A stretch of DNA of 64,000 nt, from assembly GCA_964057225.1 (NCBI GenBank), contig OZ059895.1, forward strand, positions 13,330,001 to 13,394,000, written 5' to 3'. Position numbers and translations under genes: made by a program. The notes below the pieces were generated by a model. That model searched no databases. It was not told the origin of the DNA and saw nothing but the letters and a program-made list of their open reading frames with translations. Positions 1-64,000 of the stretch are shown here, piece by piece (the stretch's first letter is position 1; each line of letters opens with the position of its first letter). Source of the stretch: Auanema rhodensis (lineage: Eukaryota; Animalia; Nematoda).

Positions 1-1356
1 CAATATAGTAAATATTACGACACTCTTGATAAAAAAATCAAGGATATATCCGGTAAGGACTTCCCTTTCAATCATTGCGATATTGAACTAGAATCCACAT
101 TACGCAAGTACCTAAAACCTCAAAAATTTTTGGGTTTATATGGTGGTGGTCTTGTAAGCTCAAAACCGTCATGTGATCCAGTCTTAGATCCAGATGTGTG
201 CGAAACAGAGGATGTTATCTCTCGTCATCACGAGTTGTCCCCGTATAATTTAATTTGCGTTGATCAGGGAATTGCAAAGCCCTTTATTTATTGGTACTTA
301 AAGAAGAGGGTCGAGACACTTGGTGATTCCGATCTTCTACGTGCTGTTGAGACTTCCAACGATGATTTTTATCGTCTGCATAAATACTTCGTCGCGAAAA
401 AGTATACCGACATGGTATTATCTCAAGAAGCTATTAGATATTTTGAGAGATTGGTAAATTTCTCAATTGAATCCCATATTATTCATCCACCGTTGGATCC
501 TGTTTTCTTATCTTTTGACAGACAATTGGGAATGTCTGGAAATTTAGGTGAAAACTTTTATGGTAACTGGTTGCGGCGTACTCCACTTACAGAATTGGAA
601 GAGACTAAATTTACTGATGTATTACCAGAAATATCGGTTGTTAAACCAATATTTACGTCGACACCAGATGCTACCCAAGACACTACTTTCACCTTTAATG
701 TAAAAAAAACCAAATTTCTCAAATTTTCGTATTTAAATCTATTTGTTGGTGGCGCCTTTTCCTATTATTGCTTAAATAACCTCTATAAACGTTCGTATTT
801 TATAGATTCGCATCACAACCAATGTGTTAATTCTTTGTATAACTTATTATCAGTTCATAATGTATATAACAGTCTCCCTAAATCCATTTGTATGTCTAAT
901 ATTATTTTTAATAATTTATGTAGAAATTCTGTAAAATATGATTTTATATCCTCTACAGTCGCACAACAGGTTCACGTTGATTCAAAATTTAATGCCACCG
1001 CAATATTTTCGGGCATTGCAGCCCTGTTAAGATTTTTGACTGCCTTTCGAATTGACTCAACTGAGGAACTTGTTCCTAATGACTACAACGCCGGTAATAC
1101 CATTAAAGATAAACACCATCCACACACTATGTTCTCAACAACTCTCTTCAACGGTGTTAGAGAATATATCGCTACCAAATTGCGTAAGTCTAGGGCTAAT
1201 GAATCTGACACTTCAGAAAATGTGATCGATGATATCCAAAAAACGTCAGCAACTATCCCAACTCCGATTTTAAATGATACTACACCCTTTAATGATGCAA
1301 TTGAAGAGTATGCCGAATATTTGACATTATATTCTAAGACTAAAAAGGTCTTTTGA
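1..1356 (+). pseudogene. Inverted second copy (3' part, open at window start) of the endogenised nege/kita-like viral replicase ORF
   Basis: Reverse complement of 3115-4470. The protein matches the C-terminus of the 1404-aa ORF except LNDTT/LNNTT and KKVF/KKDF. Confidence 0.9.
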
Positions 1357-1545
1357 AAGATTCCCAGTATGATATATGATATATTATTTTGTAATTACAT
1401 TGTTTTCCTTCATTTTTTCTCATAAAATTGTTCTGTATTATCAGTATTCTTTTATTTTTTGAAACATTTCATACAACTTTCATATTAGCATGGAATTTCA
1501 CTTTCTCGATGTAGCTGAGGTCAGCTACTTTTTCGATAGTAGGCA

Positions 1546-1958
1546 TGTTCCATACGTGTCCTATAAGTAGAGCGATTGACAACGTCAATCGCTTATAAAA
1601 CGGAACATTATAAAAACAAATAGCTGACGCTACATTTGAGAAACAGGAATTCAATGCAATAAAGAACGAACACTTTTTCATATTAAGTTTAATCAAAGAA
1701 AGCCCAATTCAAGCGGAACCAAGTTCCGCGGACCTGATATAACGACTTTTTATGCTCGTAAGGAAAACTATATAAGTTTTCCTTACGAGTCCTTTGGGCT
1801 GCGACTAGGAATCATTATGTAACTTTTATTATTGTAATTTGTATACTTTATCATGAATAAACCTTTCTCTCTATACTCTTTATCATTTATATTTGGAAGA
1901 AAAGAAAGTAATTCCATGTGGTTACCCAGCCGGAACCCTGGGGAACCACCATGGAACG
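1546..1958 (+). mobile_element. 3' LTR (413 bp) of the inverted copy of element E1
   Basis: Reverse complement of LTR 2513-2925. Reads TGTTCCAT...ATGGAACG and is followed by target TAAC. Confidence 0.92.
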
Positions 1959-2422: not shown

Positions 2423-2512
2423 GAAAATACCTGATATTCAATGATTTACATACTTATCCTCGTTATTGTTTTTTTTTCCAATTTCATGTTAGTTATGTAA
2501 TTTTCTACGTTA

Positions 2513-2925
2513 CGTTCCATGGTGGTTCCCCAGGGTTCCGGCTGGGTAACCACATGGAATTACTTTCTTTTCTTCCAAATATAAATGATAAAGAGTATAG
2601 AGAGAAAGGTTTATTCATGATAAAGTATACAAATTACAATAATAAAAGTTACATAATGATTCCTAGTCGCAGCCCAAAGGACTCGTAAGGAAAACTTATA
2701 TAGTTTTCCTTACGAGCATAAAAAGTCGTTATATCAGGTCCGCGGAACTTGGTTCCGCTTGAATTGGGCTTTCTTTGATTAAACTTAATATGAAAAAGTG
2801 TTCGTTCTTTATTGCATTGAATTCCTGTTTCTCAAATGTAGCGTCAGCTATTTGTTTTTATAATGTTCCGTTTTATAAGCGATTGACGTTGTCAATCGCT
2901 CTACTTATAGGACACGTATGGAACA
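2513..2925 (-). repeat. E1 3' LTR
   Basis: Direct repeat of 10970-11382. Terminal IR TGTTCCAT/ATGGAACG, TATATAA near 2696-2702, AATAAA near 2610-2615 (minus). Confidence 0.95.
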
Positions 2926-3114
2926 TGCCTACTATCGAAAAAGTAGCTGACCTCAGCTACATCGAGAAAGTGAAATTCCATGCTAATATGAAAGTTGTAT
3001 GAAATGTTTCAAAAAATAAAAGAATACTGATAATACAGAACAATTTTATGAGAAAAAATGAAGGAAAACAATGTAATTACAAAATAGTATATCATATATC
3101 ATACTGGGAATCTT

Positions 3115-6100
3115 TCAAAAGTCCTTTTTAGTCTTAGAATATAATGTCAAATATTCGGCATACTCTTCAATTGCATCATTAAAGGGTGTAGTATTATTTA
3201 AAATCGGAGTTGGGATAGTTGCTGACGTTTTTTGGATATCATCGATCACATTTTCTGAAGTGTCAGATTCATTAGCCCTAGACTTACGCAATTTGGTAGC
3301 GATATATTCTCTAACACCGTTGAAGAGAGTTGTTGAGAACATAGTGTGTGGATGGTGTTTATCTTTAATGGTATTACCGGCGTTGTAGTCATTAGGAACA
3401 AGTTCCTCAGTTGAGTCAATTCGAAAGGCAGTCAAAAATCTTAACAGGGCTGCAATGCCCGAAAATATTGCGGTGGCATTAAATTTTGAATCAACGTGAA
3501 CCTGTTGTGCGACTGTAGAGGATATAAAATCATATTTTACAGAATTTCTACATAAATTATTAAAAATAATATTAGACATACAAATGGATTTAGGGAGACT
3601 GTTATATACATTATGAACTGATAATAAGTTATACAAAGAATTAACACATTGGTTGTGATGCGAATCTATAAAATACGAACGTTTATAGAGGTTATTTAAG
3701 CAATAATAGGAAAAGGCGCCACCAACAAATAGATTTAAATACGAAAATTTGAGAAATTTGGTTTTTTTTACATTAAAGGTGAAAGTAGTGTCTTGGGTAG
3801 CATCTGGTGTCGACGTAAATATTGGTTTAACAACCGATATTTCTGGTAATACATCAGTAAATTTAGTCTCTTCCAATTCTGTAAGTGGAGTACGCCGCAA
3901 CCAGTTACCATAAAAGTTTTCACCTAAATTTCCAGACATTCCCAATTGTCTGTCAAAAGATAAGAAAACAGGATCCAACGGTGGATGAATAATATGGGAT
4001 TCAATTGAGAAATTTACCAATCTCTCAAAATATCTAATAGCTTCTTGAGATAATACCATGTCGGTATACTTTTTCGCGACGAAGTATTTATGCAGACGAT
4101 AAAAATCATCGTTGGAAGTCTCAACAGCACGTAGAAGATCGGAATCACCAAGTGTCTCGACCCTCTTCTTTAAGTACCAATAAATAAAGGGCTTTGCAAT
4201 TCCCTGATCAACGCAAATTAAATTATACGGGGACAACTCGTGATGACGAGAGATAACATCCTCTGTTTCGCACACATCTGGATCTAAGACTGGATCACAT
4301 GACGGTTTTGAGCTTACAAGACCACCACCATATAAACCCAAAAATTTTTGAGGTTTTAGGTACTTGCGTAATGTGGATTCTAGTTCAATATCGCAATGAT
4401 TGAAAGGGAAGTCCTTACCGGATATATCCTTGATTTTTTTATCAAGAGTGTCGTAATATTTACTATATTGAAGATAGGTATTTAATCCGTCCGATCTTTT
4501 TATATCAAAATTGTTACAAACGGAGCGGAAAAACCCGGTGTAGTTAAAATCAGATCTTACAATTTCGGATTTAGTATACCCCTCACATAAAACATAAAAT
4601 TCACAAGAAATAGGTGTGGAGGTAGACAAGAAAAGAACCGTTAATTTCGCAAATCTCGAAAGTAATCGGCGCAATAAAATCTGAGTACTAATAGCATAAG
4701 GGTAAAACAGTTTAATAACCAATTTGCCGTTATCATGCAATAGATCGAATGCGGTGGAGATTTCAGCATAAATGAGATCATAGTTATTGTCAGCACGAAG
4801 AAGAGGATTAACAGCTGTTTCAGATATGGCTCCGTCAGCTAAAATAAGTAGTCTGTCATTGGTGTTCTTCTTTATTAATTCAACCATAGAGTTTCGAATA
4901 TCGTCATCAAGCAAATTTGACGATCTTGTTACAGGGTCACAATAGGGAGTTAAACGGTTATCGAATATTAACATGGATTTAGGTCCAGGCACAGCATGAA
5001 TAAAACTGTTAGAGTTATGTAATAAATATTCAGAAAACCCTCCGGGGCTAGAACATAAGTCGATTATATCGACATAACAGAAATCGATCAGCCCAAAGGC
5101 GTGTAATTCGCACAGTTTTAAGGCCGAGCGACAAATGTATCCTCCAGTGCCGATATTAGATGTAGGAGTCATTATGTTTTTAATCAGCTTATGTTTACGA
5201 TTAGAGACATTCTCAAAAGTTTTGTCATAAATGTCTCTGAATTTATCAATCAAAGGAGCGTCGTTACAATCGAACACATCGTCAGATGTTAATACCATCA
5301 AACGGTTCGGACAAACTTTCAAAGCAGAAAAATGACCAGGCGTATAATGAACGTGATATAATTGTTCAGATGCTAGCGTACGAGGAGTATAAAGTCGAAA
5401 CTGACCAGTGGAAGTATCGTGTAAGCAAATCTTAACACGGTATAGACCACTGAACAACTCAATATGCTCATCTGTTCCCCAATTATCAACATTAGAGGGA
5501 TCGTTAATACCGGCTAACAGAAGATTCTTTGTCTTCTCACCGATGTTAGGGGCATGGCTAAGTTTATCACGAATTGATGGTGGACTATCGGTAGTAGCAC
5601 CCGTAAGTCTCAAAGCGTGAAAAAGACAGTCGCCGTCACCAGGAGTGGGGATAATTTCAACGTTACTTTGGCAGGAATGTGAAACCGACACAGATACCGG
5701 TTCAAAAGACGTCGAAGTATCAATAACACCCTCTTCTGCATCAAAATACTCATCAGAATCTTCACCAGATGAACATTCGAAGTCATTAGGCAACCACAAT
5801 TTATATAGGGGATGGTCAATAGTCTTCCGTACTTCGCGATGGACAAGTTGGGAAACCTGTCGGTCAATATCAATATAACCGATATTACGGAAAATCTTTA
5901 TATCATAAAGAGTCCCGCCCAGTACACAATCCCGCCAACCCTTCATCCGAGATGTGTCGTCGCAAACAGTCTGGTCTGACATTGATGACACTGTAAGGTC
6001 ATTGTCATGAGCTTTAGACATGGCGGACAATAGGTTTTCGGTCTTGTCGGAATACTTCATCATGGAGAATAAACGGGTGAACCGGGGAAATAAGGATAAA

Positions 6101-7584
6101 GATCTAGAAATAGAAATGTCATCCGTCAATTCCTTTATAGTCTTAGTTGAACTGTAATTGCTGACATAAATTAGCATATAAACAGTATGAGCCAGTATTC
6201 GGAGAGTATCAGCAGAATGTCGTTCGTCAGAACTGGAGATTGTTTGTCCATTGACTACAACACGACTATCAAGAGAAATACCCATTGACAGGATATTTTT
6301 GACGGTGAATTTACCCTCACCCAAGGTCATACCATGTTTTAACATGTTTTCAAACAAGCTAGTTGATACACAGATATAAGCATATTTCAATTTATTTTTG
6401 GTTTTAAAAAAAGATGAAGATTCATCAAAATCGTATGTACGAATATAGGATTTTTTGTCGGAGTTCAATTTAAAAGTACGCCCGCTAATATGACGGGGAA
6501 TAGAAGTGTCAATCCTTGCAATGTCAAAGAAAAAATGACTCTTAAATTGTAATAGCCCAGCCACCGCATAACTATATAAAGAGGTGGTAGAAGTTAGAAC
6601 AAAAGCTTTTATGATAAAAATATAAGTGTCCCAACGATGAGTGTAACACAATTGAACATCGTTATCAAATGAGAATCTAATATATTCGACTCCAAACTGT
6701 TTATAGCGGGTAAAAGATGCGTCAATATCTGGTAACATACCATTTTTTTTAATTAAAACAACGGGGTCGAATAATATAACTCCGACGGCCCTAATAGCTT
6801 CACAGTTATCTAAGGTCTGAACAATGTCAGCTGGAGAAAGATCATAAACAGAATGTAAAAAGGATACAAAAGGGGCTTTTATCTTACAGTACTGGGAAAG
6901 TTGAGAACAAATATAATTAGAATCCATAGAGAGTATTTTTTTACAATGATAAACTTTATTGCTATCAAAGGAATTATTCACAATCATAGTTGCTTGAGCT
7001 ACGTAATTATTACGTCTAAAAACGTCAGCCGTGTTCACAACTGGACAGCAACAGTGAACGGAGTAAAAGCCACTATTAACAAACTGCATGGGATTTGATC
7101 CTATATCCTTTTGTACTACATGGTATTTACCGCTGGGTGTTAATGTCTTGAACATTTCCAAAGAGCGAAAGAATTGGTATCTTATGTAGTAAAAAGCTAC
7201 AGTGCGTAAGGCACGAGCTAGTGAATGAGGTCCACCATCGGTGTTACTGGTCTCAATTCTAAAACAAGAAAAATTTTTTTGAATGTCTTGTAATTGTTCA
7301 CTAGATAAAATCTGTTGTAATCTAATCAAAATTCGTCCCGAAGAGTCAAAATTAATTCACTTCATACGGTTGTCCAATACACTGGCTTTAACAGCTGCTG
7401 CAACACTACTATTTGGGTTGTTAAGGATTACATTTTTAAGGACGGGATCAAAATTTTTATCCGCTGATACGGATAAAAGAAAGTCTCCCATACATTTATC
7501 ATCTGTTGGAAATTTTTCAGATCGGTAACCGGTGTCGTCCATAACAATTAAGTTATTAGACGAAACGGCCGTGCAGTCATCCAT
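3115..7584 (-). pseudogene. Endogenous viral element: N-terminal part of a nege/kita-like (Martellivirales) replicase with Alphavirus-like MTase/GTase, OTU-like protease and FtsJ 2'-O-MTase; truncated before helicase/RdRp
   Basis: ATG at 7584 (MDDCTAV) is in frame with the 3115-7329 ORF, broken by one TGA at 7357-7359. MTase motifs GGPHSLARALR, KDIGS, VHCCCP..DVFR, LHSVYD. OTU motifs PGDGDCLFHAL..WG..GHF (~5320-5660). FtsJ K-D-K-E motifs RSALKL, DLCSSPGGF, LADGA, VIKLF, SCEFYV (~4575-5150). Confidence 0.9.
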
Positions 7585-7637
7585 AACTACCAGGTGACAC
7601 AATAAAGTGTCAATCTAGTAGAAGGAGAAAAGCAATC

Positions 7638-7887
7638 GACGTTGTCAATCGCTCTACTTATAGGACACGTATGGAACATGCCTAATATCGAAAAAGTAGC
7701 TGACCTCAGCTACATCGAGAAAGTGAAATTCCATGCAAATGTGAAAGTTGTATGAAATGTTTCAAAAAAATAAAAGAATACTGATAATACAGAACAATTT
7801 TATGAGAAAAAAATAAAGGAAAACAATGTAATTACAAAATAATATATCATATATCATACTGGGAATCTTTCAAAAGTTCTTTTTAGT
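7638..7887 (-). repeat. Internal duplication of the E1 3'UTR + pre-LTR hairpin + first 41 bp of U3 (copy of 2885-3132)
   Basis: gacgttgtcaatc...atggaaca-tgcc...ctgggaatctttcaaaag is repeated, with about 7 differences between copies. Confidence 0.92.
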
Positions 7888-8485
7888 ATTCTTCATAATA
7901 CTGGTGTATCTCTGGTAATGGTGATGATCCTAGGTCGTGGAGAAGATCCATAGTCTTGTTGCATAAATCCGTTTTTCTTTCCATTTCTTCCTTGGTGGTT
8001 GCTGGTGATGCCAGAAATATTTGTAGAGCATTTAAAATGCTTTTTCTTGCCTCTGTGGATGGCAGTTCGCTGCAATGTTGCAGGCTCCATTCTTGATAGG
8101 CCGAATGGGTCTCAGCAATAATCCAGTTTGGTGTCTGCTGTTCTGGTGAATCGCAACTAGGTGAATAACCTAGTTGGTCCCTTAGTTCAGCAATGGCATC
8201 TCGGATGACTCCTGCTGTGTTGGTCCATGGTCCTATGCAGTGGTCAACCTCCGACAGTTGATCCTTGTCGTATTGGTAACATAGGATTTTGAGCGTTTCA
8301 GTACTGGTGTTCGCTCTTGTTAGTCCTTGAACTAACTCTTTCAGGATCTTCTCTTTCCTGGGGCGGTTGGCGATGGTATTGGCGCCTAGCTGCTTCAATT
8401 CTCTTACTAATAGTTGAATTGAAAGCCATCTCTTTTTGGCCATCATGAGGGGAATTTCGATGGCTTCAGGGAGTTGGGTGGACAT
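7883..8485 (-). CDS. E1 accessory ORF3, ~200 aa helical/coiled-coil protein of unknown function
   Basis: Intact ATG-stop ORF. Aligns by eye with the ORFs ending at 13575 and 57409 (P..M.K..W..I..L..EL.QL; LRDQLGY/LREDLGY; P.W...E.H). Confidence 0.75.
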   Translation of the reverse strand: MSTQLPEAIEIPLMMAKKRWLSIQLLVRELKQLGANTIANRPRKEKILKELVQGLTRANTSTETLKILCYQYDKDQLSEVDHCIGPWTNTAGVIRDAIAELRDQLGYSPSCDSPEQQTPNWIIAETHSAYQEWSLQHCSELPSTEARKSILNALQIFLASPATTKEEMERKTDLCNKTMDLLHDLGSSPLPEIHQYYEEY

Positions 8486-8850
8486 TGTTATCTTTGTTAC
8501 TGTTTTCTGTCCTTTTTATCCTTTTTAAAACTAGGTCGGTCTGTTCCTTCCTTTTTGTCGCCTCCTTTTTGACCAGTTAGGTGAAAAAAAATGATGAAGA
8601 TTGTTGATTAAAACTTTGCAGTGATTTTTGAAAGATTCCAAGTATGATGTATAATTTTATTTTGAAATTTTGGTTATTGATACAATATTTTTATGAGAGT
8701 GAAAAAATAAAAATGTACAATAATTTGTGTAGAATTTTATGTCTTACTTAAATGAGAAAAAAAAATCATATATAGGTTCAAGTTTAGATGAAAATTATGA
8801 AAATGGTATTATACTTTTTGTGATTTTTATATAGAAATTATGGATTTTTA

Positions 8851-9175
8851 CTATTGTTCTAGCTTCTTACTTGTAGCCCCAATAACTGTTGACGGTCTTT
8901 TCTTATGGATGACTGGTACTGTTGGTGCCACGAAGTTTGGGTCCGGGATCGGACTCTTCGAAACTCTCTTCTTCGGCTCTGTTACTGGTATGGTGCTGTG
9001 ATACCTTATCGGCACATGATAAGGCTTTGCTGGCGTTGTAGGAGAATTATCTTCTAATCCCAATGCCAATTTAAGTGCTGAACTCCATTTCTTAATTGTG
9101 GGTGGCTCCTTCTTCCGTTCCTCATACAATTCTTTTCTTGCGTTTTCTTCTATTTTCTCTGATAGTTTGGTGAAT
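8851..9175 (-). pseudogene. E1 remnant of the Pol C-terminal tail
   Basis: KELYEERKKEPPTIKKWSSALKLALGLED...RPSTVIGAT matches the E4 C-terminus QELYEERRKEIPTTKRWSSALKLALGIED...RPSTVIGAT. Confidence 0.85.
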
Positions 9176-9589
9176 TTCGAGGAAGAGGAGAAGAAAGAAT
9201 AGCAGTATTTGGGTATGAAAATGATATTTGAGAATAATCTTTACAAGGGGAAGTATTTGTGCAAACATAGCTAGAGCTTTTGATAACGTTAGAATTGCGT
9301 TTAGGAGTTTGTTTGTTAATAGACGTTTTAATTTTACTAAGAGTAATAGCGTGGCGAGAAGTTTTGATAGCTGTTGTGCCTATTTTTTTTTGCGGGGGTA
9401 CCCGGTATAGCGGGTGGTTTCTTTGCAGCAGTAGGTCGGCGCTTCGTGTCCGGCTCATAAACATTTGGAGGTCCTCTCTTTCTTTGATTCTGCTCGAGTA
9501 CTGGCTCGACGTGCGTATCATTACCGGGGGGCTGCGCTCTGTGGATTTGTTTTATCCTGCGGAGGATTTTTACTCTTCGAGTCCGTCAT
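9170..9589 (-). pseudogene. E1 frameshifted remnant of the Gag N-terminal disordered region
   Basis: ATG at 9589 lies in the same context as the E2 gag ATG. QRKRGPPNVYEP resembles E2 RRKRQPPATYSP, and SSPLPRNSP resembles E2 SSPPLRNSP, in different frames. Confidence 0.65.
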
Positions 9590-10950
9590 CTTGTTGGTTT
9601 TCCTGGAAAGGAAATTATTATACCAACGATGCGAAACTTATAAAAATATATATACAACGTGAGAGGCAATATGGGGTTGTATGCGTGACGCTTGCTAGGG
9701 GGCCAGCCTGCAGCGAATCTTCTAACGGAGAATTGCTCAATCGGGTACATACACGGGCCTGTGACCGGTGCGCCCTTTCTAGGATCAAGTTCCCATCTCT
9801 CGAATAGGCGTGAAATATACGACGGTGATCTAAGCAGTATTCCCTTTCAGTCTTTCGACAAGATTAGGTGCTCAGGCCTCGAACATTCACTTTCCCAGAC
9901 TTCTCTTGCCTATGAAAAATTACAGAAATCGCTCCCTTAACGAAATTCTGCTTCCCTGATTTTTCATGGTGAGACCACTCTAACACTTTCATTCTCGACT
10001 AATTCTGTAAAGGGATCTTCAAAATCAGGAATGCGTACGTCTTATATCAAAAATAGTGGTTGCCTCCGCTCAGTTCTCGAGACAGTCTGGTATTGCTTCT
10101 CACGGGCTACTTTTAGGATCAAAATGCAAAATTGTAAATCTTAGGTTCGGGATTCAGATAAAAAATTTCAAAATTATTTGGCTGTTTTCTGGGTTATATT
10201 AGGAAGAAGAAAAAAAATAATAGTAATAAGAGAGGGAAAAAGATAAAATTTAAAAGAAGATAAAAGAAAAATAAAATAGGAATATAGTAGGAATATAGTA
10301 GGAATATAGTACTAGTATAGAATAGTTTTGTACATAAATATATATATATAAATGAGTAATACATTTTAAAGGATAGAATAGAAATTAATGAATTTTAATA
10401 TATATAAAACAATGAATTTTTTGATGATTCATGAAAGAAATTAATTCATTTTTGATTCAAAAATTGTTTGAAACTTTATAACAAAATTTTATGAGAGATA
10501 GAATAGATTTTGATTAAAAAAACAGAAAAAGAAAAGATTGACAGAAAAAAAAAATATCGAAATACCTTTCTTTGAATGAATAAATATAAAAGAATTTCAA
10601 ATTAATTTATGATAGTTATAAACAAAGTTTTTCCTCAAAAATGAATGAAAGATCTTAGAATATGGATAAAAATCGAAATGTTTCTTTTAAATGAATGAAT
10701 ATAAAATTTCAAAATTAAGTTGTTTCAAAATATATCTTTTTAAATAAATGTATATAAGATTTCAGTATTAATTTATGAATCAAAATCAAAATAAAGTTTT
10801 TTTGAATGAATGAAATAAAGAAGAGAAAGATTTCAAATTAAATTCATATAGCATAATCGAAATATAATTCTTTAATTAGATGTATGAAAGACAACAAAAT
10901 TAAATTTATGTAGCGAAATATGGTTCTTAGAGATTCGTCGGTTATAGACG

Positions 10951-10969
10951 AATCTCGGCGGAACCTCCA
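10951..10969 (-). promoter_or_regulatory. Primer-binding site for tRNA-Gln (E1)
   Basis: TGGAGGTTCCGCCGAGATT abuts the 5' LTR and is complementary to the eukaryotic tRNA-Gln 3' end (AATCTCGGTGGAACCT-CCA). Confidence 0.85.
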
Positions 10970-11382
10970 CGTTCCATGGTGGTTCCCCAGGGTTCCGGCT
11001 GGGTAACCACATGGAATTACTTTCTTTTCTTCCAAATATAAATGATAAAGAGTATAGAGAGAAAGGTTTATTCATGATAAAGTATACAAATTACAATAAT
11101 AAAAGTTACATAATGATTCCTAGTCGCAGCCCAAAGGACTCGTAAGGAAAACTTATATAGTTTTCCTTACGAGCATAAAAAGTCGTTATATCAGGTCCGC
11201 GGAACTTGGTTCCGCTTGAATTGGGCTTTCTTTGATTAAACTTAATATGAAAAAGTGTTCGTTCTTTATTGCATTGAATTCCTGTTTCTCAAATGTAGCG
11301 TCAGCTATTTGTTTTTATAATGTTCCGTTTTATAAGCGATTGACGTTGTCAATCGCTCTACTTATAGGACACGTATGGAACA
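10970..11382 (-). repeat. E1 5' LTR
   Basis: Direct repeat of 2513-2925, adjacent to the PBS. Confidence 0.95.
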
Positions 11383-11707
11383 GTTACATCTAAATTCTTC
11401 GATGATATCAAATCTTATGAGCTCCAAATACAATAAATTAAAAAAGGTTTCACAGTTGTATAGTGTTAAAACAATGTTTGTTTCAATAGGAAATAGATAG
11501 AAACAGTAAAGTTAAGATGAAGGTTCATAAACTACTGGTTTATAACTGTAATATAGAAATAAGATTGAAGATATTTTGATGCCTTGGGTTGAGCTATCTA
11601 AGTAAAACTGCTAGAAAATTAAAAACATTTGTTACGGAAGAGATAAAATTGAAAATCAGCTGCATTGCGTACTTTCAACGTGGTATGATCGTTAAAAAAA
11701 ATTGAAA

Positions 11708-11826
11708 AGCTTACGGCACCCGGGATTCCCAAGCCGTCTCCGATCCTAGTACTAACCGGGCCCAACGTTGCTTGACTTGCCAGATCGGACGGGATGGCGT
11801 ACTTTCAACGTGGTATGGTCGTAAGC
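11708..11826 (-). rRNA. 5S rRNA (1 variant nt)
   Basis: Array copy; cctag instead of ccaag. Confidence 0.93.
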
Positions 11827-57408: not shown

Positions 57409-58044
57409 TTATCCTTCTTCCTCCTCGATTTGTCCCAGCTGGAAGTCGGTCGCGGGTTGCCGGTCGGCGACCGTCCATATGTGGAACAGGCTGACGTCTG
57501 TTAGCAGTTCCGTCGCCTGGCCTGCTATCATCATTTTCTTTCTTTTCTGGTCCGGAGTGGTGGCGCGCGTCGCCATTAGTATCCTTAAGGCCTGGCTGAT
57601 CAGGTCTCCCGCTTTCCTAATCGACTGGTTGGTCGATTCCATCATACTTTCTTCTGTCCAGCTCTTGTGGATCTCTTCCGCGGCCCATCTTGGGATGAGA
57701 TCCGCGCTAGCTACATTTTCGGAGGCTGGATAGCCTAGATCTTCGCGTAGTTTGTTGATGGTGGCCTTGGTGCGGGCAGTGGCCTCGGACCAGTTTTGCG
57801 CCATTTTGGCCATCTCTTCTTCATCATTGTTACATGAACATTGTAACCTTTCCAGAGTCTCTATTAATAGAGTAACTCTGGCTAAATTCTCCGAAAATGA
57901 TTGGAGAATTCTTATCTTTTTAGTCCTGTTGTTTGTTGTCTCCAGTTGTTGTAGTTCTATCTGGAGCGAATGAATCTTGATCCACTTTTCCTTGATCATC
58001 GCGATAGGTGTCTCGCAGGCTGGTGGAGGGAAGACGAGTGCCAT
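57409..58044 (-). CDS. E4 accessory ORF3 (~211 aa from MALVFPPP), unknown function
   Basis: Homologous by eye to E1 and E2 ORF3. Likely start is ATG 58044 (ORF also open to ATG 58134). Confidence 0.75.
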   Translation of the reverse strand: MALVFPPPACETPIAMIKEKWIKIHSLQIELQQLETTNNRTKKIRILQSFSENLARVTLLIETLERLQCSCNNDEEEMAKMAQNWSEATARTKATINKLREDLGYPASENVASADLIPRWAAEEIHKSWTEESMMESTNQSIRKAGDLISQALRILMATRATTPDQKRKKMMIAGQATELLTDVSLFHIWTVADRQPATDFQLGQIEEEEG

Positions 58045-58264
58045 TCTTGTGGTGCTGGGAGTTTTTCTGCTTGAGGTGAATTTTGAGCTTATATAGGGTG
58101 AAAAAAATAGGTAAGTATATATTTTGTGATACATAGATATTAAGATTGATGATTGGGGAAAACATTGTTTTTGTTGTTTGGGTAGCAGATAGAATGAATT
58201 ATTATAAATTAATAAAAAAAAATTAATGAATAAAGTTATTTTCCCGAAAAGTTTCTATTTTTGA

Positions 58265-61200
58265 TTAAATGGTTGTTGTTGCTCCAATCACTGTTGAAGG
58301 TCGTTTCTTTCGTACAACCGGTGTTTTTGGAGAATTGAAATGAGCATCAGGTATCTGAGAGCGTGTGAGCCTGTTTTTAGACTCTAAGGTGGGTATCACG
58401 CTGTTGTACCTTATTGGTACGTGGAATGGTTTTGGAGCGGTTATAGGATTTTTGTCTTCTATTCCAAGTGCCAACTTGAGGGCTGAGCTCCATCTTTTGG
58501 TTGTGGGTATCTCTTTACGTCTTTCTTCATAGAGCTCTTGCCTTGTTTCTTCTCCAATTTTATCGACAAGTTGTTGAAATAAGTTGTTTTCGTCCTTGTC
58601 CGTAGCTGACTTGTCTGCCGTATTCGGTCCGGTTTCTGGTTGATAATTGTCCTGTTGTGTTTCCCGCGTAATTTCCTGTGGTGCTATTGTTTCTTGTGGT
58701 GTTATTGAAGGTCGGCTTTGTTCGTAGAATTCGTCCTCGTTGTCGCTTTCTGAATCAGAGATTGATGTTGCGGTGGGCGTGCTATTTTTAGCGCGCGTAT
58801 TTTCCGTATCCTGCTGTGAGCCGTCGCTATAAATGGCGGGTGCGGAGTCGTTTCTGTTGTGCTCGCTTTCTTCGACGTTGTTATCGTCGGGTGGAAAGTA
58901 TCTTATATTATTCTTGTGAGCTATAATCGTATTCCCTTCGCTATCTGCTAATATTACGTTATTTCCTTTTATTTCTTTGATTATATATGGTCCATCGCTT
59001 GTTGTTTGTAATTTATTTGCTGGCTTTGCTCGCTTGACGAGTGCTCTATTTTCCACGAAGATCTCTCTTTCCTGCGTCCTGTGATTTTCGTCGTATTTCT
59101 TCTTCATTCTTTCATTATTCAACTCTATCCTTTCATGAATCTTCTCGTGTAAGTCCGGGGCGTTCTTGATTGTGGCTCCTGGGGTTTCTAAGTCCTTATC
59201 TATTGGTAACCGAGCTGTTTGTCCAAACAGACAGTCGTAGGGTGGTGTGCGAGTAGTAGCGTTTGGTAGTCGATTCATCGTAAAAACAATTTTTGGTAGA
59301 ATAATATCCCAATTGTCTTGGTCGTCATTAACGTAGGAAGTTAATGCTTCTTCCAGTGTTCTGTGTAGCCGTTCCACTTGACCATTTGCGTTTTTGTAGT
59401 ATGGCATAGTTGTGTGATGTTCCGATCCAAGATTATCGCACATGCTTTTGAATTCCTTTGAAACAAAATTTGCTCCATTGTCTGTGATGATTTTCTTGGG
59501 GGGTCCAAAAACATAAAACAAGTGTGTTTTAATAGCTGATACTATTTCTTCTGATGTCTGACGAATTAATGGTATCGCTATAATCCATTTGGAAAATGCG
59601 TCCTGTATAGATAAAATGTATCTATTATCCTTTGCAGTTCTAGGTAATGGTCCTAGTATGTCCATGTGAACTCGTTCCCATGGATGTGTCACTGTTGGGA
59701 AGTTTCTCATTGGTTCAACTGTGGCTTCATGTGGGTTATTTTTCCTCTTTGCACAGTCGAGACATCTGTTCACATATCTTGTGATATCATCCTGTATTCC
59801 TGTCCAAGTGTACCGTCGCAAAATGGAGTCTTGAGTCTTATTGATTCCAAGATGTGCTCCGAGAATTGGGTCTTTATGAAATTTTTCTATAATTGGTATT
59901 GTGATTGCTGGATCGTTTGGTAGAATGGCTCGCGGAGTTTGTAAAGCTGTTTTGGGTTTTGCATACAGAGCGTCGTTCACAACGATATATCGATCCATTA
60001 GTTGCCTTCCTGCTGTTTTGTTCCGAATCTTTTCTTTTGTTTCCATGATCCATTCTGTATTGCCTTGAATGGTCCGAAGGTCCGTAATAGTTGAAATAGT
60101 CGAGATTTTGTGTGTAGGAGTTTCTTTTGGTTTCTTCTTTCTTTCCTTGGCTTCGTTGACTTCGTCTTCAAAATATCGTGAAAGTGCATCACAGACGCTG
60201 TTAAGACGTCCTGGGCGATACACTATCTCGATGTCGTATTCTTGTAATACGATTTGAAATTTTGCTAGCCTGCCAATGAGATCTTTTCTTGTCATGAGGC
60301 TAGTAAGAGGCCTGTGATCGGTAATGATTCTTATTGGTGTGCCTAGTATGTAAGTCCGAAATTGATGTACTGCGAAAGTGAGTGCTAGGGCTTCGATTTC
60401 AATTGGTGGGTAATTCCGTTCGGCTTTGTTCAGTTTTCGGCTGGCAAATGCAATTGGGTGAAGTGGTTCCTTGTCGTCTTTAGCCTGTAATAGTACTGCG
60501 CCAACTGCAATTATACTTCCATCGCTTTCAATGACGTAAGGTCGTTTTGCTATAGGTGCTTGTAGTACAGGAGCTTGACAGAGTATCTGTTTAAGTTGTT
60601 GAAATGCTTGTTCTTCTGCATCTCCCCATTTGAATGCTGTATCCTTTTTCGTGAGCTCATAAAGTGGTGACGCAATGCCTGCGGCATTTCTAATAAATCT
60701 GCGAAAGTAGTTCACAACTCCCATAAATGCTCGAACTCCTGTTATTGATTTCGGTCTTGGATAATCTCGGATTGCTTTTACTTTCTGAGGGTCTGGTTTT
60801 ATTCCTTCGTGTCCAACAATGAATCCTAGGAATTTGACTTCTTGTTGTCCAAAGGTACATTTCTTAAGCTTGATTTTTAATCCTAGCTCTGCTGATGCGT
60901 TCAGTACTTCGTCGATATCTTGTAAATGTTTCGTCGTTGATTCCGATATGAGAAGTAGATCGTCGAGATAGACGAAGAGCTTGCATCGTACGTGTTGTTG
61001 TAAATATCGTACAGCATTTTGGAATGTGTGTGGAGCTCCGCAGAGTCCCATCGGCATTCTGCAGTATTGATAAGTTCCGCTCGTAGTAGTGAATGCGGTG
61101 AGGTGTCTATCTTCTGATCTAAGAGGGATTTGAAAGAATCCAGATACTAGATCAAAGTTACTGAAGATACGCGCTCCGGCTGCTAGGTCCAAGATGTCTT

Positions 61201-64000
61201 GAATGTTAGATATAACGTAGATTTGTTTTTGCGTTATTGCGTTGAGTGCTCGAAAATCAGTCACAAATCTGTACGTTTTATCCTTTTTCTTGACCAATAT
61301 TACGGGACTGGTAGTCATAGAAAAAGATGGCTCAATTATTCCTTGTTCTAACATTTCCTCCACTTGTTTTTCTACTTCTTCTTGTTGTGATAGAGGTATT
61401 CTGTACGTGATCTTGAAAGATGGAACTTTTCCTTCGATGATCGGGATGCTATGTTCCACTGGTCCTTTGAAAAGTCCAATATTGCGATCCTCGTTTAAGA
61501 AAGCTTCCTTGTTTCTGAGCACTATTTTCTTTAACTGTTGTCTCTCTAGCTGAGTAAAGATGGTGTTTGTTACATCGAGGTCTTTTATAAAGTCCTCTGG
61601 GAAGTATGGTAGTTGATCTTCCCATCTTGCTTCTGGTGGCACATATTGTCCTTTTTGCTCCTCCGTGTTTTTCGGGATAGCGTAAGCTGTTCCAATGCCT
61701 TGATTTGTCTGTACTACAATTGTGTCTGGAGAGATATTTGTAGCAAATATCTGAACTCCATATCCCGTTGGGGTGAAAGTAGTAGGGGCGAAACTCATTT
61801 TTCCTGTCCGCTGTGAACTTCTAATGAAAGCTTGTTCGTAAGAGGCGGGATCGTCTACTTCCAATGTAAGCGATCTGGTTTCTCCTGGGTAGAACTGTTT
61901 AGTTTCCAGGCTTACGACGTGTGCTATCGTGTGGTTCTCAGTCCATGGCGCGTAGTCTTGTGCTAAAGGTACTATTGTGTCTCCAATTAGTAGTGAATTT
62001 TGTAGTGGTCGTAAAGATGTATTTATTCCTATTTTGTTGAGAGCTTCTATAAAGTCTATTCCTAATAATATTGGTGCTGGGCAGTGGTTGTTGGCAGAAA
62101 TCAGTACTTTGTGCTCGATTTCTGTCTTCCCGATAATAATTGGGATTCTTGTGTAGCCCAGGAAAGAAAATCGTGATTTGTTTGCTACAATGGCTGTTGT
62201 CTTTTCCATAACCATTGTTGCTGCCGGTAGTTGTTGAAATGTACTTTCCTTCATGTATGATATAGAAGCTCCTGTGTCCCATAAAGCAGTAAAGATCTGA
62301 TTGTGAATGGAGAGAGGTACGAAAGGTAGTCGTGATCCTCCGATGTAGTTAATCCTTGATTCTTTCATAGCGTACCGTGGTAGATAGGCGAAAAAGTCAT
62401 TATCTGATAGTGGGGCGTCAGGATCATATCGAGAGGTTCTTGTATATAATTTCTCTTGCTGAGAAGTGACTAGTGGTTTTAATTCGAATTGTTTGTCCTC
62501 TCCTCTTGGTTCTTCGTCTTGTTCGTTGAATGTGATTTGATTGATTGGTATCCTTGTGGTACCTGCATATATTTTTAATGCCCAAATGGTAACAGTTATG
62601 AGTCCTATTGTGACGATGATTGCTCCAATAATAGCTAGTGTCCTTAGTATCCATGCTGTAATTGATTCTCCTATGTATCCAAAGAAATTTGTGATTTGTT
62701 TCTCCGCGTTGTTTGATATGTTATCTGCTATCATTAATGTCGTTCCAACTGTTCCTCCTATAATTCCTATTGGATTCAGATTGGATAGTCCAGAATGTTT
62801 GAAGACTGGTTTCAATTTTCCTGGCATAGTTGCTTGTAAAGATGCTAGGCTAGAGCCGTAGGAAATAGCCAGTGCCATTGGAAATGTTGACTCCGTGAGG
62901 TTTGAAAATATGTTGGAATTGTTAAACTTAATGTGATCAATTTTTACAGATGTGAGTTCATCCGAAAATGAGAAGTTAGTCACATTCAATGTTGAATTAT
63001 CTTTCATCCATTGATTGTTTTCTCTGTAGGGATCTGATGTAGCCATATCGCATGCTATGATGTGGGCATATGGTGTTAAATCTCTGGATCCTGGTGTGAT
63101 GAAGAGTTTTCCGTGATGATCTGTGTCTACCGGTGTCTCCAGGTAACATTTATCGTCTCGTTTGTGATCCGAGTATACACGTGTTACTTGTACAGGGGTG
63201 CATGGCATGACGTAAATAAGATGTTCTCCAACAAACTTTGCTGAAATATCCTGTCGACGAAGCATAGTGCGAATTCCTATAGTCGGATTAATCTGCAGGA
63301 TAGCCCACCAGGTAAGTAGCTGCTTATTTTGCATTCTGCATACGCTTTTCTTTGTTATTTGGAAAGATTGTAAGATTTCCTCCTCTAGTTTTGACGTAGA
63401 GTATTGGAGGTGGGACCTTGTATCTTGTTGACGTAGTTGATCGTCGTATTTTTGAATGATATCTGCTCGTGTTCGTAGGAAATTGAGGTGGGCTTGTGAT
63501 CCAGTGTGAGATTTGATTTCCTCAATCGGTTGGGTCGTTGTTGCTCGCTTTGTAGTAGTCCGAGTTGTTTGAAGTGTCCTAGTAGATTCCCTGCGGGATG
63601 TGGTGGTGAGAGGACGTGGTGGTGGAGTTACTGGAGTTGTTGTACTCTGGTAATAATAATATCTCCTTGGTGTAGTTGTAGTTTGAGGTGGAGACGTCCG
63701 ATGAGTAGTAGTTGTCGGGGCAGTTGTTGTAGTAGTCGATGTAGTGGTTGTGGTGGTTGTAGTAGTGGTGGTTGTGGGGCTAGCACCAGGTGACTCAATG
63801 AGCTGAAGATATGCTTGTTGAAATAATTTGCTGTCTTCATCCGTGATAGGTCTGATTGTAGGTTGATTTTTGGGCAACCCATAATTTTGTGCGTGTCCGT
63901 TGAAGATGAGGGTATAGTTGGGAAAGACGATTGCTGACGAATTTGCCTGTTTTGTGAGATCTGCCCATTTCTTATTTTCTGTCTCTCTTTGTTCTTTTGA
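58265..64000 (-). CDS. E4 polyprotein, partial: Env C-half, TM, protease, RT, RNase H, integrase
   Basis: Frame is open to the window edge (SKEQRETENKKW..PNYTLIF matches E2). TM ~62575-62645, LWDTGA ~62270, YLDD ~60960, integrase motifs. Confidence 0.94.
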   Translation of the reverse strand, partial: SKEQRETENKKWADLTKQANSSAIVFPNYTLIFNGHAQNYGLPKNQPTIRPITDEDSKLFQQAYLQLIESPGASPTTTTTTTTTTTTSTTTTTAPTTTTHRTSPPQTTTTPRRYYYYQSTTTPVTPPPRPLTTTSRRESTRTLQTTRTTTKRATTTQPIEEIKSHTGSQAHLNFLRTRADIIQKYDDQLRQQDTRSHLQYSTSKLEEEILQSFQITKKSVCRMQNKQLLTWWAILQINPTIGIRTMLRRQDISAKFVGEHLIYVMPCTPVQVTRVYSDHKRDDKCYLETPVDTDHHGKLFITPGSRDLTPYAHIIACDMATSDPYRENNQWMKDNSTLNVTNFSFSDELTSVKIDHIKFNNSNIFSNLTESTFPMALAISYGSSLASLQATMPGKLKPVFKHSGLSNLNPIGIIGGTVGTTLMIADNISNNAEKQITNFFGYIGESITAWILRTLAIIGAIIVTIGLITVTIWALKIYAGTTRIPINQITFNEQDEEPRGEDKQFELKPLVTSQQEKLYTRTSRYDPDAPLSDNDFFAYLPRYAMKESRINYIGGSRLPFVPLSIHNQIFTALWDTGASISYMKESTFQQLPAATMVMEKTTAIVANKSRFSFLGYTRIPIIIGKTEIEHKVLISANNHCPAPILLGIDFIEALNKIGINTSLRPLQNSLLIGDTIVPLAQDYAPWTENHTIAHVVSLETKQFYPGETRSLTLEVDDPASYEQAFIRSSQRTGKMSFAPTTFTPTGYGVQIFATNISPDTIVVQTNQGIGTAYAIPKNTEEQKGQYVPPEARWEDQLPYFPEDFIKDLDVTNTIFTQLERQQLKKIVLRNKEAFLNEDRNIGLFKGPVEHSIPIIEGKVPSFKITYRIPLSQQEEVEKQVEEMLEQGIIEPSFSMTTSPVILVKKKDKTYRFVTDFRALNAITQKQIYVISNIQDILDLAAGARIFSNFDLVSGFFQIPLRSEDRHLTAFTTTSGTYQYCRMPMGLCGAPHTFQNAVRYLQQHVRCKLFVYLDDLLLISESTTKHLQDIDEVLNASAELGLKIKLKKCTFGQQEVKFLGFIVGHEGIKPDPQKVKAIRDYPRPKSITGVRAFMGVVNYFRRFIRNAAGIASPLYELTKKDTAFKWGDAEEQAFQQLKQILCQAPVLQAPIAKRPYVIESDGSIIAVGAVLLQAKDDKEPLHPIAFASRKLNKAERNYPPIEIEALALTFAVHQFRTYILGTPIRIITDHRPLTSLMTRKDLIGRLAKFQIVLQEYDIEIVYRPGRLNSVCDALSRYFEDEVNEAKERKKKPKETPTHKISTISTITDLRTIQGNTEWIMETKEKIRNKTAGRQLMDRYIVVNDALYAKPKTALQTPRAILPNDPAITIPIIEKFHKDPILGAHLGINKTQDSILRRYTWTGIQDDITRYVNRCLDCAKRKNNPHEATVEPMRNFPTVTHPWERVHMDILGPLPRTAKDNRYILSIQDAFSKWIIAIPLIRQTSEEIVSAIKTHLFYVFGPPKKIITDNGANFVSKEFKSMCDNLGSEHHTTMPYYKNANGQVERLHRTLEEALTSYVNDDQDNWDIILPKIVFTMNRLPNATTRTPPYDCLFGQTARLPIDKDLETPGATIKNAPDLHEKIHERIELNNERMKKKYDENHRTQEREIFVENRALVKRAKPANKLQTTSDGPYIIKEIKGNNVILADSEGNTIIAHKNNIRYFPPDDNNVEESEHNRNDSAPAIYSDGSQQDTENTRAKNSTPTATSISDSESDNEDEFYEQSRPSITPQETIAPQEITRETQQDNYQPETGPNTADKSATDKDENNLFQQLVDKIGEETRQELYEERRKEIPTTKRWSSALKLALGIEDKNPITAPKPFHVPIRYNSVIPTLESKNRLTRSQIPDAHFNSPKTPVVRKKRPSTVIGATTTI

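Follow-up and report, generated by a model that had tools for sequence, protein, structure and literature searches.

Capture of foreign RNA by retrotransposons with long terminal repeats (LTRs) is established for host mRNAs, which undergo LTR-mediated retroposition by a microsimilarity-guided double template switch (PMC5131818). The mechanism has been proposed for a nematode nodavirus gene (PMC5177903) and for endogenous viral elements (EVEs) of mosquitoes (bioRxiv 10.1101/127498), as far as the accessible parts of these sources describe it. We report here on a 64,000-nt stretch of the nematode Auanema rhodensis (contig OZ059895.1, positions 13,330,001 to 13,394,000; hereafter the window), in which a Ty3/gypsy-related element, E1, carries a fragment of a positive-strand RNA virus. 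The best explanation, which we consider probable, is that reverse transcriptase (RT) switched template twice during minus-strand synthesis in a particle, among at least three RNAs.

E1 resembles the host mRNA cases, in the portion of PMC5131818 available, by a foreign RNA lying within an LTR element, short similarity at a junction, a double switch in the particle and later non-autonomous mobility. It differs by its cargo, viral instead of host mRNA, and by its outcome: internal open reading frames (ORFs) were partly replaced in 15/15 Drosophila cases, whereas in E1 the second switch would lie 3' of the first, 250 bp including part of U3 are duplicated and nothing is deleted. In Bursaphelenchus xylophilus, eBxnv-1 is a nodavirus RdRp gene in a degenerate Bel/Pao element, for which copy-choice was proposed (PMC5177903). 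E1 shares with it a (+)ssRNA virus gene between conserved LTRs, a defective nematode element and an insert invariant among carriers. The virus and element groups differ, and expression was demonstrated for eBxnv-1 whereas E1 is known here from DNA alone; the accessible text on eBxnv-1 describes neither a junction analysis nor a flanking duplication, and its virus-less relatives are only fragments whereas those of E1 are abundant. The non-retroviral EVEs adjacent to Ty3/gypsy and Bel/Pao elements in Aedes aegypti have the same-strand polarity, read as copy-choice in the part of the preprint consulted; they are fragments in piRNA clusters, whereas E1 is a single LTR-to-LTR unit with a target-site duplication (TSD) in 5S rDNA. 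No natural EVE with a flanking element duplication was found in the openly accessible literature, supplements aside, and the junction data of PMC5131818 might hold similar cases. E1 is distinct in its backward jump with duplication, the readable polarity of its junction and its 5S setting.

The element and its viral cargo

E1 spans 2513-11382. Its parts outside the capture are listed here, E2, E3 and E4 being the other LTR elements of the window.

2513..2925, minus strand: 3' LTR, 413 bp, TG...CG ends, identical to 10970-11382
10970..11382, minus strand: 5' LTR, identical to the 3' LTR
2509..2512 with partner 11383-11386, unstranded: 4-bp TSD seen in the sequence, ~90 nt upstream of a 5S gene
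10951..10969, minus strand: primer-binding site (PBS) directly after the 5' LTR, presumably tRNA-Gln-like, its first 10 nt common to E2 and E3
8851..9240, minus strand: C-terminal remnant of a polyprotein, homologous to the end of the gag-env-pol ORF of E4 (58265-64000)
7883..8485, minus strand: ORF3, which shares 30% identity with the E4 3' ORF at 57409-58254 (E=2e-20)

The identical LTRs and the 4-bp TSD indicate that the whole unit was placed by integrase, and the viral cargo sits between the two LTRs of this one TSD-flanked element, the arrangement by which LTR-mediated capture is recognised. E1 is without RT or other pol domains, hence non-autonomous; the PR-RT-RH-IN order of Ty3/gypsy (Metaviridae) is present in E2. 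ORF remnants, the PBS and the start of U3 link E1 to the Ty3/gypsy group, of which it would be an internally deleted derivative, and since it has no RT of its own we infer that it must be mobilised in trans, by the RT of an intact relative. Beyond the 3' ORF of E4, ORF3 gives no family match and no further homologue or atlas match. Membership in the Cer1 family was rejected: E1, E2 and E3 share a PBS other than that of Cer1, which is tRNA-Pro (PMC10309623, accessible part).

The captured sequence comprises three features.

3136..7629, minus strand: captured (+)ssRNA virus sequence, by homology and domains the 5' half of a nege/virga-like (Martellivirales-type) replicase
3115..7584, minus strand: viral replicase frame, 1,483 codons, ATG at 7584, with MTase-like region and FtsJ (aa 816-1003)
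7585..7637, minus strand: leader of 45-53 nt before the viral ATG, a putative viral 5' UTR; fold of 7560-7640, z = -4.3

The insert (3136-7629/7637, ~4.5 kb) runs in the sense of the element, as a preliminary description of this DNA had stated. Domain searches find FtsJ (E=6e-16) and neither SF1 helicase nor RdRp_2, so that their absence, also claimed earlier, stands. The MTase region is recognised by homology to P0001, P0004 and P0027, with no direct Pfam match, and the frame holds a motif that we take to be OTU-like. Over ~950 aa the insert is colinear with nege/virga-like replicases of 2,380-2,560 aa at 28-31% identity. Among them, Drosophila River Almond nege-like virus (WPV74320.1, P0005) and Hubei virga-like virus 8 (P0001) have the order MTase-FtsJ-helicase-RdRp_2; compared with these two the insert is only 24-31% identical, and helicase and RdRp_2 are cut off. 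By these comparisons it reads as a replicase fragment of nege/virga-like, Martellivirales type. The helicase of the four best relatives begins at aa 1,407-1,574 and the captured frame ends at ~aa 1,483, thus capture stops just before the helicase. The frame has one in-frame TGA (codon 76, 7357-7359) and no frameshift, and terminates inside the 3'UTR of the element; homology continues across the premature stop to the replicase N-terminus, residue 13 corresponding to residue 16 of P0027 and residue 56 to residue 56 of P0001. This TGA and the 5S rDNA nature of the surrounding array had both been missed at first. The leader also holds, at 7613-7629 (minus strand), a pyrimidine tract ending in AG, which could be a candidate splice acceptor in a chimeric transcript.

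Reads and contigs of 7 of the 14 listed public runs (X3, X5, X7, X9, X10, X11 and X12) were compared with the window; summed contig depth is not taken as copy number. Within the insert the listed contigs show 0 other letters in 4/4 runs (3 studies, 3 organism labels), pieces spanning the stop included; the pieces of X9 leave gaps. At the upstream junction, contigs extend 20-30 nt across the border in 4/4 runs from 3 studies, one of which may be the source of the window DNA, and they reach 30-44 nt past the downstream junction in 4/4 runs. An assembly artefact is rejected for the capture itself, since junction-crossing contigs come from 3 studies, and the insert ranks as a non-retroviral EVE. 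X11, without virus cover, and X10, with patchy low cover, are not read as virus absence. In X12, presumably RNA, only parts of the element are covered, at a depth of ~1-4 that gives no evidence on expression.

Word-index searches for the parent virus gave a single match each, at 24-26% identity. A HMMER scan gave 454 matches at E<=0.001, the best full-length one reaching 31% among the best 150 of the 454, and scans of viral and metagenome contigs confirmed 0/14 and 0/142 pattern matches. The closest relative among the matches listed is a fragment with 56% identity over 181 aa.

A second viral sequence, ~85% identical to the insert (6815-7176 and 7478-7564), is present in X3, X5, X7 and X9, at a higher summed depth than the insert of E1. 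Its differences from the insert lie mostly at third positions (30 of the 36 viral-region rows listed) and are mostly synonymous (31/36), among 40 of the 63 rows. Its likely origin is a separate endogenisation event involving a related virus. One 10-letter loose end of this variant, in X7, matches the 5S spacer, a weak lead.

Two junctions and a 250-bp duplication

The junctions and the repeats that flank the insert are as follows.

7679..7887, minus strand: upstream 3'UTR copy, ORF3 stop included; equals common virus-less contigs at all substitution sites over 7638-7877
7638..7678, minus strand: internal copy of U3 nt 1-41, exact match to U3
7630..7637, minus strand: 8 nt resembling U3 nt 42-49 (6/8); both mismatches keep the hairpin through G-U pairs
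2926..3135, minus strand: downstream copy of the 3'UTR; element match ends at 3135 by comparison with virus-less copies

At the virus 5' side, the exact match to U3 is 41 nt long (7638-7678) and ends within the U3 stem-loop. Alignment and folding (z = -3.4 for 7600-7730; z = -4.6 for the native U3 start, 2850-2975) thus bear out the proposal that this junction falls inside the U3 hairpin, after 41 nt of U3. The 8/10 match reported there has to be restated: the similarity is real, but three of its bases belong to the exact match and beyond it the score is 6/8. A similarity of 6/8 or better occurs at 5 of 3,160 control positions of the insert, and the same prefix score at 15 of 3,160. Both mismatches of 7630-7637 are transitions, and the 8 nt carry non-element letters. 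At the captured end 7/7 positions pair with the 5' arm of the hairpin (two as G-U); 1 of 3,176 control 7-mers pairs fully.

Minus-strand synthesis would copy a homologous stretch before it jumps; a virus-to-element jump should therefore leave viral letters, as seen here. This microsimilarity at the 5' junction, a mark of capture, assumes that the 8 nt are viral, which contig ends support. The virus contig is unbroken to 7667 (7637+30) in X3, X7 and X9. Assuming 31-letter words, a virus-less U3 variant with the 8 nt would end the virus contig ~8 nt earlier, and no such variant is evident among the assemblies of these three runs. Thus the 8 nt are probably not element-derived. The virus contig of X5 (6840-7657) departs from the internal U3 copy at 7657, where 30 other letters follow, and is uninformative on the 8 nt. 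These letters, which we take to resemble a Tc1/mariner end after TA, are possibly a later insertion in the X5 sample.

At the downstream junction a 9-mer (7879-7887 = 3124-3132) overlaps the ORF3 stop (7883-7885), exactly where the preliminary description had placed it. In 6/7 runs (X3, X5, X7, X9, X10 and X11; X12 is without cover) the virus-less copies disagree with the window at 7888, so that the element match there extends to 12 nt (3124-3135). This stretch is the start of the duplication, not demonstrated virus sequence. The 9-mer was rejected as demonstrated microhomology, its viral counterpart not having been found, and no similarity was seen beyond the junction; since an element-to-virus jump leaves element letters, microhomology would be invisible here without the virus sequence. 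There is no poly(A) at the 3' junction of the insert (longest A run in the last 100 nt, 6), and neither poly(A) nor a short TSD of its own on the viral cargo. The signature of a LINE-mediated event was sought and not found, in line with the earlier reading.

The 250-bp duplication is real, with the coordinates first given for it all holding: 7638-7887 and 2885-3132 form a direct repeat in which 8 of the 250 aligned columns differ, through 6 substitutions and 2 one-base homopolymer indels. The LTRs, for comparison, differ at 0/413 (Fisher p=3.8e-4; substitutions only, 6/248, p=2.7e-3). Because the repeats are more divergent than the LTRs, they are not a TSD made after integration. The upstream repeat shows 0 other letters and 2 gaps against the common virus-less contigs (X3, X9). 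For the downstream repeat, the states at 2 of the 6 substitutions (3123 and 3060) are seen outside the virus-carrying copy. That of 3123 occurs in the virus-less contig of X11 (row 7878) and also in X5, from the virus-contig merge point 3106; that of 3060 reaches a summed depth of ~940 in X5, against ~64 over the virus. These standing family variants make it likely that the two repeats were copied from different element templates (family members or element RNAs) rather than produced as a long TSD. The virus-less copies of E1 that the preliminary description had proposed to look for are present: a contig of X11 runs from 2520-2983 into 7738-8034, i.e. LTR-3'UTR-ORF3 without virus. In X9 the contigs on the virus sum to a depth of ~9-17 and those on most of the element body to 160-320, values that give no copy number.

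A second virus-carrying copy lies at the edge of the window.

1..1958, plus strand: inverted, partial copy of the virus-carrying element, with 3 differences, all within 109 nt

The two copies differ at 3087, 3122 and 3195 (1384, 1349 and 1276 in the inverted copy), a clustering (p about 0.009) at the downstream junction. The variant of 3122 is the sole state in X7 and the other state is found in X3, X5 and X9; the two haplotypes are therefore real, which concerns the haplotypes and not the inverted arrangement. The inversion junction (2048-2097) cuts a 5S gene after 38 nt, and its 11-nt filler resembles the adjacent spacer, as in end-joining repair. The spacers beside the two copies differ at two sites, both common variants among monomers.

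Capture route and its alternatives

Under the double switch, RT would have started on one element RNA, A, copying U3 and the 3'UTR until it reached the region of the ORF3 stop, and from there jumped to an internal site of the viral plus-strand RNA, immediately 5' of the part that encodes the helicase. It would have copied this RNA to, or close to, the viral 5' end. Imperfect pairing (6/8) with the U3 hairpin, at nt 41-49, would then have brought it onto another element RNA, B. Re-landing 250 nt 3' of the departure site would yield a duplication instead of a deletion. Synthesis would have finished normally on RNA B, and the full-length DNA would have integrated ~90 nt upstream of a 5S gene with its 4-bp TSD. 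The lack of poly(A), the repeats more divergent than the LTRs and the standing family variants support capture by reverse transcription and not by LINE-type insertion into an integrated copy. Of the double RT switch first proposed for this locus, reverse transcription, the start at the replicase N-terminus and the minus-strand polarity of the upstream homeology are upheld; two switches in a single reaction are inseparable, on sequence alone, from one switch followed by DNA recombination.

This latter route, possible but unlikely in our judgement, would involve one element-to-virus switch, ending at the viral 5' end and giving a virus-3'UTR-LTR cDNA that was then joined at U3 to another E1 copy, either through recombination between DNAs or during a later round; a defective genome or an earlier endogenous copy may have served as viral template. 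It predicts the same anatomy, polarity and two-template signature, so that sequence alone cannot separate it from the double switch, and it needs only two RNAs at a time. Insect retrotransposon-virus chimeric DNAs are enriched in defective genomes according to the accessible part of PMC5857290, a template that the shared premature stop would fit, and the DNA runs that show the insert also contain a second, related viral sequence. But ~8 nt of imperfect homology is short for homologous recombination, and a crossover would rather favour the long shared LTR. Moreover, the identical LTRs and the TSD demand full retrotransposition afterwards, when direct repeats are often deleted: in retroviral replication, deletion amounts to 16% for a 250-bp repeat and to >90% for a 701-bp repeat spanning >1.5 kb (PMC3187697, as available). 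By this analogy the viral cargo should be unstable in further replication rounds. Distinctly less probable is a viral cDNA inserted into an integrated E1 (LINE-type target-primed or by end-joining) at nicks 250 bp apart, the repeat being a long TSD. The insert is formally flanked by a direct repeat, and priming on the bottom strand would give the same polarity of homeology; yet there is no poly(A), and the excess divergence of the repeats over the LTRs (p=4e-4), together with the standing family variants that they contain, would require later re-mobilisation or gene conversion, the latter a possibility within an rDNA array. A TSD that was once identical and then simply decayed neutrally is rejected, since the near-intact frame fits such decay poorly: 1,483 codons with at most 1 stop and no frameshift have P 0.001-0.05 at 1.2-1.6% neutral divergence, for assumed indel ratios of 0.05-0.1. 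It seems very improbable that the switches took place while the plus strand was being made, with minus-strand RNA or cDNA of the virus as the new template. The upstream junction does lie 41 nt after the U3 start, where plus-strand synthesis would begin, and minus-sense viral templates are reported for Drosophila chimeras (PMC5857290, in the part accessible); however, a 5'-to-3' element-to-virus jump would leave element letters, whereas both mismatches are non-element, and the jump back to the ORF3 stop is not readily given.

Several points weigh against the double switch among three RNAs. It needs three RNAs in one particle. Among the rows listed, 4 of the 6 distinguishing substitutions are absent from virus-less copies; one of these four, the 3087 state, is missing from the inverted copy and is hence of later origin or due to a later exchange; and the upstream copy has three changes absent from the common contigs (7888 and the two homopolymer indels). 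Later recombination with virus-less RNAs after another capture route could produce the same repeat pattern. At the upstream junction, contigs drop rare variants, and a rare U3 variant so dropped would look identical, so that the contig ends are not proof. The related viral variant of X7 aligns only over 7478-7564 and continues 5' with 112 unaligned letters, more than the leader of 45-53 nt, hence E1 could have missed the true viral end. No close exogenous parent virus was found in the protein-library, viral-contig and metagenome-contig searches, and for this reason the viral 5' terminus and the downstream microhomology remain putative.

The pre-U3 hairpin, the 5S array and the meaning of the capture

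Two further features concern the U3 border and the host repeat.

2945..2958, minus strand: pre-U3 palindromic hairpin, 14 nt, at the place expected for a polypurine tract; also at 7698, 13411 and 57203
11708..11826, minus strand: 5S rRNA gene of the 529-bp host repeat (Rfam match)

No polypurine tract precedes U3: the longest purine run is 4 in E1 (both copies), E2 and E4, and 5 in E3. The 14-nt palindrome is kept before U3 in E1 (both copies), E2 and E4, not in E3, and the internal duplicate retains it together with the U3 start. It is a candidate plus-strand priming or packaging signal, judged by its position and conservation. The second internal plus-strand priming site of the preliminary description is therefore not demonstrated; what is there is the conserved hairpin, with a priming role only surmised. 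A bolder, quite unlikely reading makes the U3 hairpin a landing pad: viral RNA would displace the native 3' arm, abut U3 nt 41 and splint the jump. In this reading, duplication of the pre-U3 hairpin and of the beginning of U3 would supply another plus-strand start and another integrase end; the result would be a mini-element that carries virus, and 5S-targeting gypsy families would archive virus 5' ends. We found no literature on hairpin plus-strand priming or on 5S-targeting gypsy elements in nematodes, in a search mostly without subscription papers.

From 2304 to 56859 the window is a tandem array of a 529-bp unit containing a 5S rRNA gene (Rfam RF00001, 107.7 bits), with 42 full copies. Four different Ty3/gypsy elements interrupt it (insertion sites 2513, 12974, 34786 and 56846), all on the minus strand. 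Counted upstream from the 5S gene, the distance is 89-90 nt for E1 and E2, which share one site, 50 nt for E3 and 58 nt for E4; these four insertions 50-90 nt upstream suggest Pol III-type targeting of Ty3/gypsy elements to 5S genes. For transposable elements in the 5S spacer of animals, the part of a review available (PMC10946416) gives examples only from fish. A single 3,100-aa frame of E2 holds gag, a region resembling the gB fusion protein and PR-RT-RH-IN. E2 shares the GAG-ENV-POL order reported for Nematoda, Bryozoa and Platyhelminthes (PMC13524379, as accessible), whereas domains of gag, env and pol are all missing from E1. For the E2 protein, two of the three best-matching atlas clusters are most frequent in Nematoda, on few records; with the domain order, this makes a nematode host likely. 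The DNA of E3 and E4 is 65-71% similar to E2. The LTRs of E1, E2 and E3 end in CG instead of the usual CA, with the PBS directly adjoining; the LTR of E3 seemingly begins with CG too. No tRNA gene lies within the 64-kb window.

That LTR elements capture RNA viruses by copy-choice is a widespread proposal, and the published natural cases that we found are mostly decayed or donor-less. E1 preserves both junctions, the TSD and virus-less donor copies; the differences between its repeats point to at least three templates, and the polarity of the mismatches points to minus-strand synthesis. Two short stretches of parent virus sequence would suffice for a direct test of the model. The insert is a record of a virus lineage without close relative in the libraries searched. 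If the landing-pad reading were true, the 5' end of one virus lineage would be repeatedly archived in 5S arrays, as a heritable source of small RNAs.

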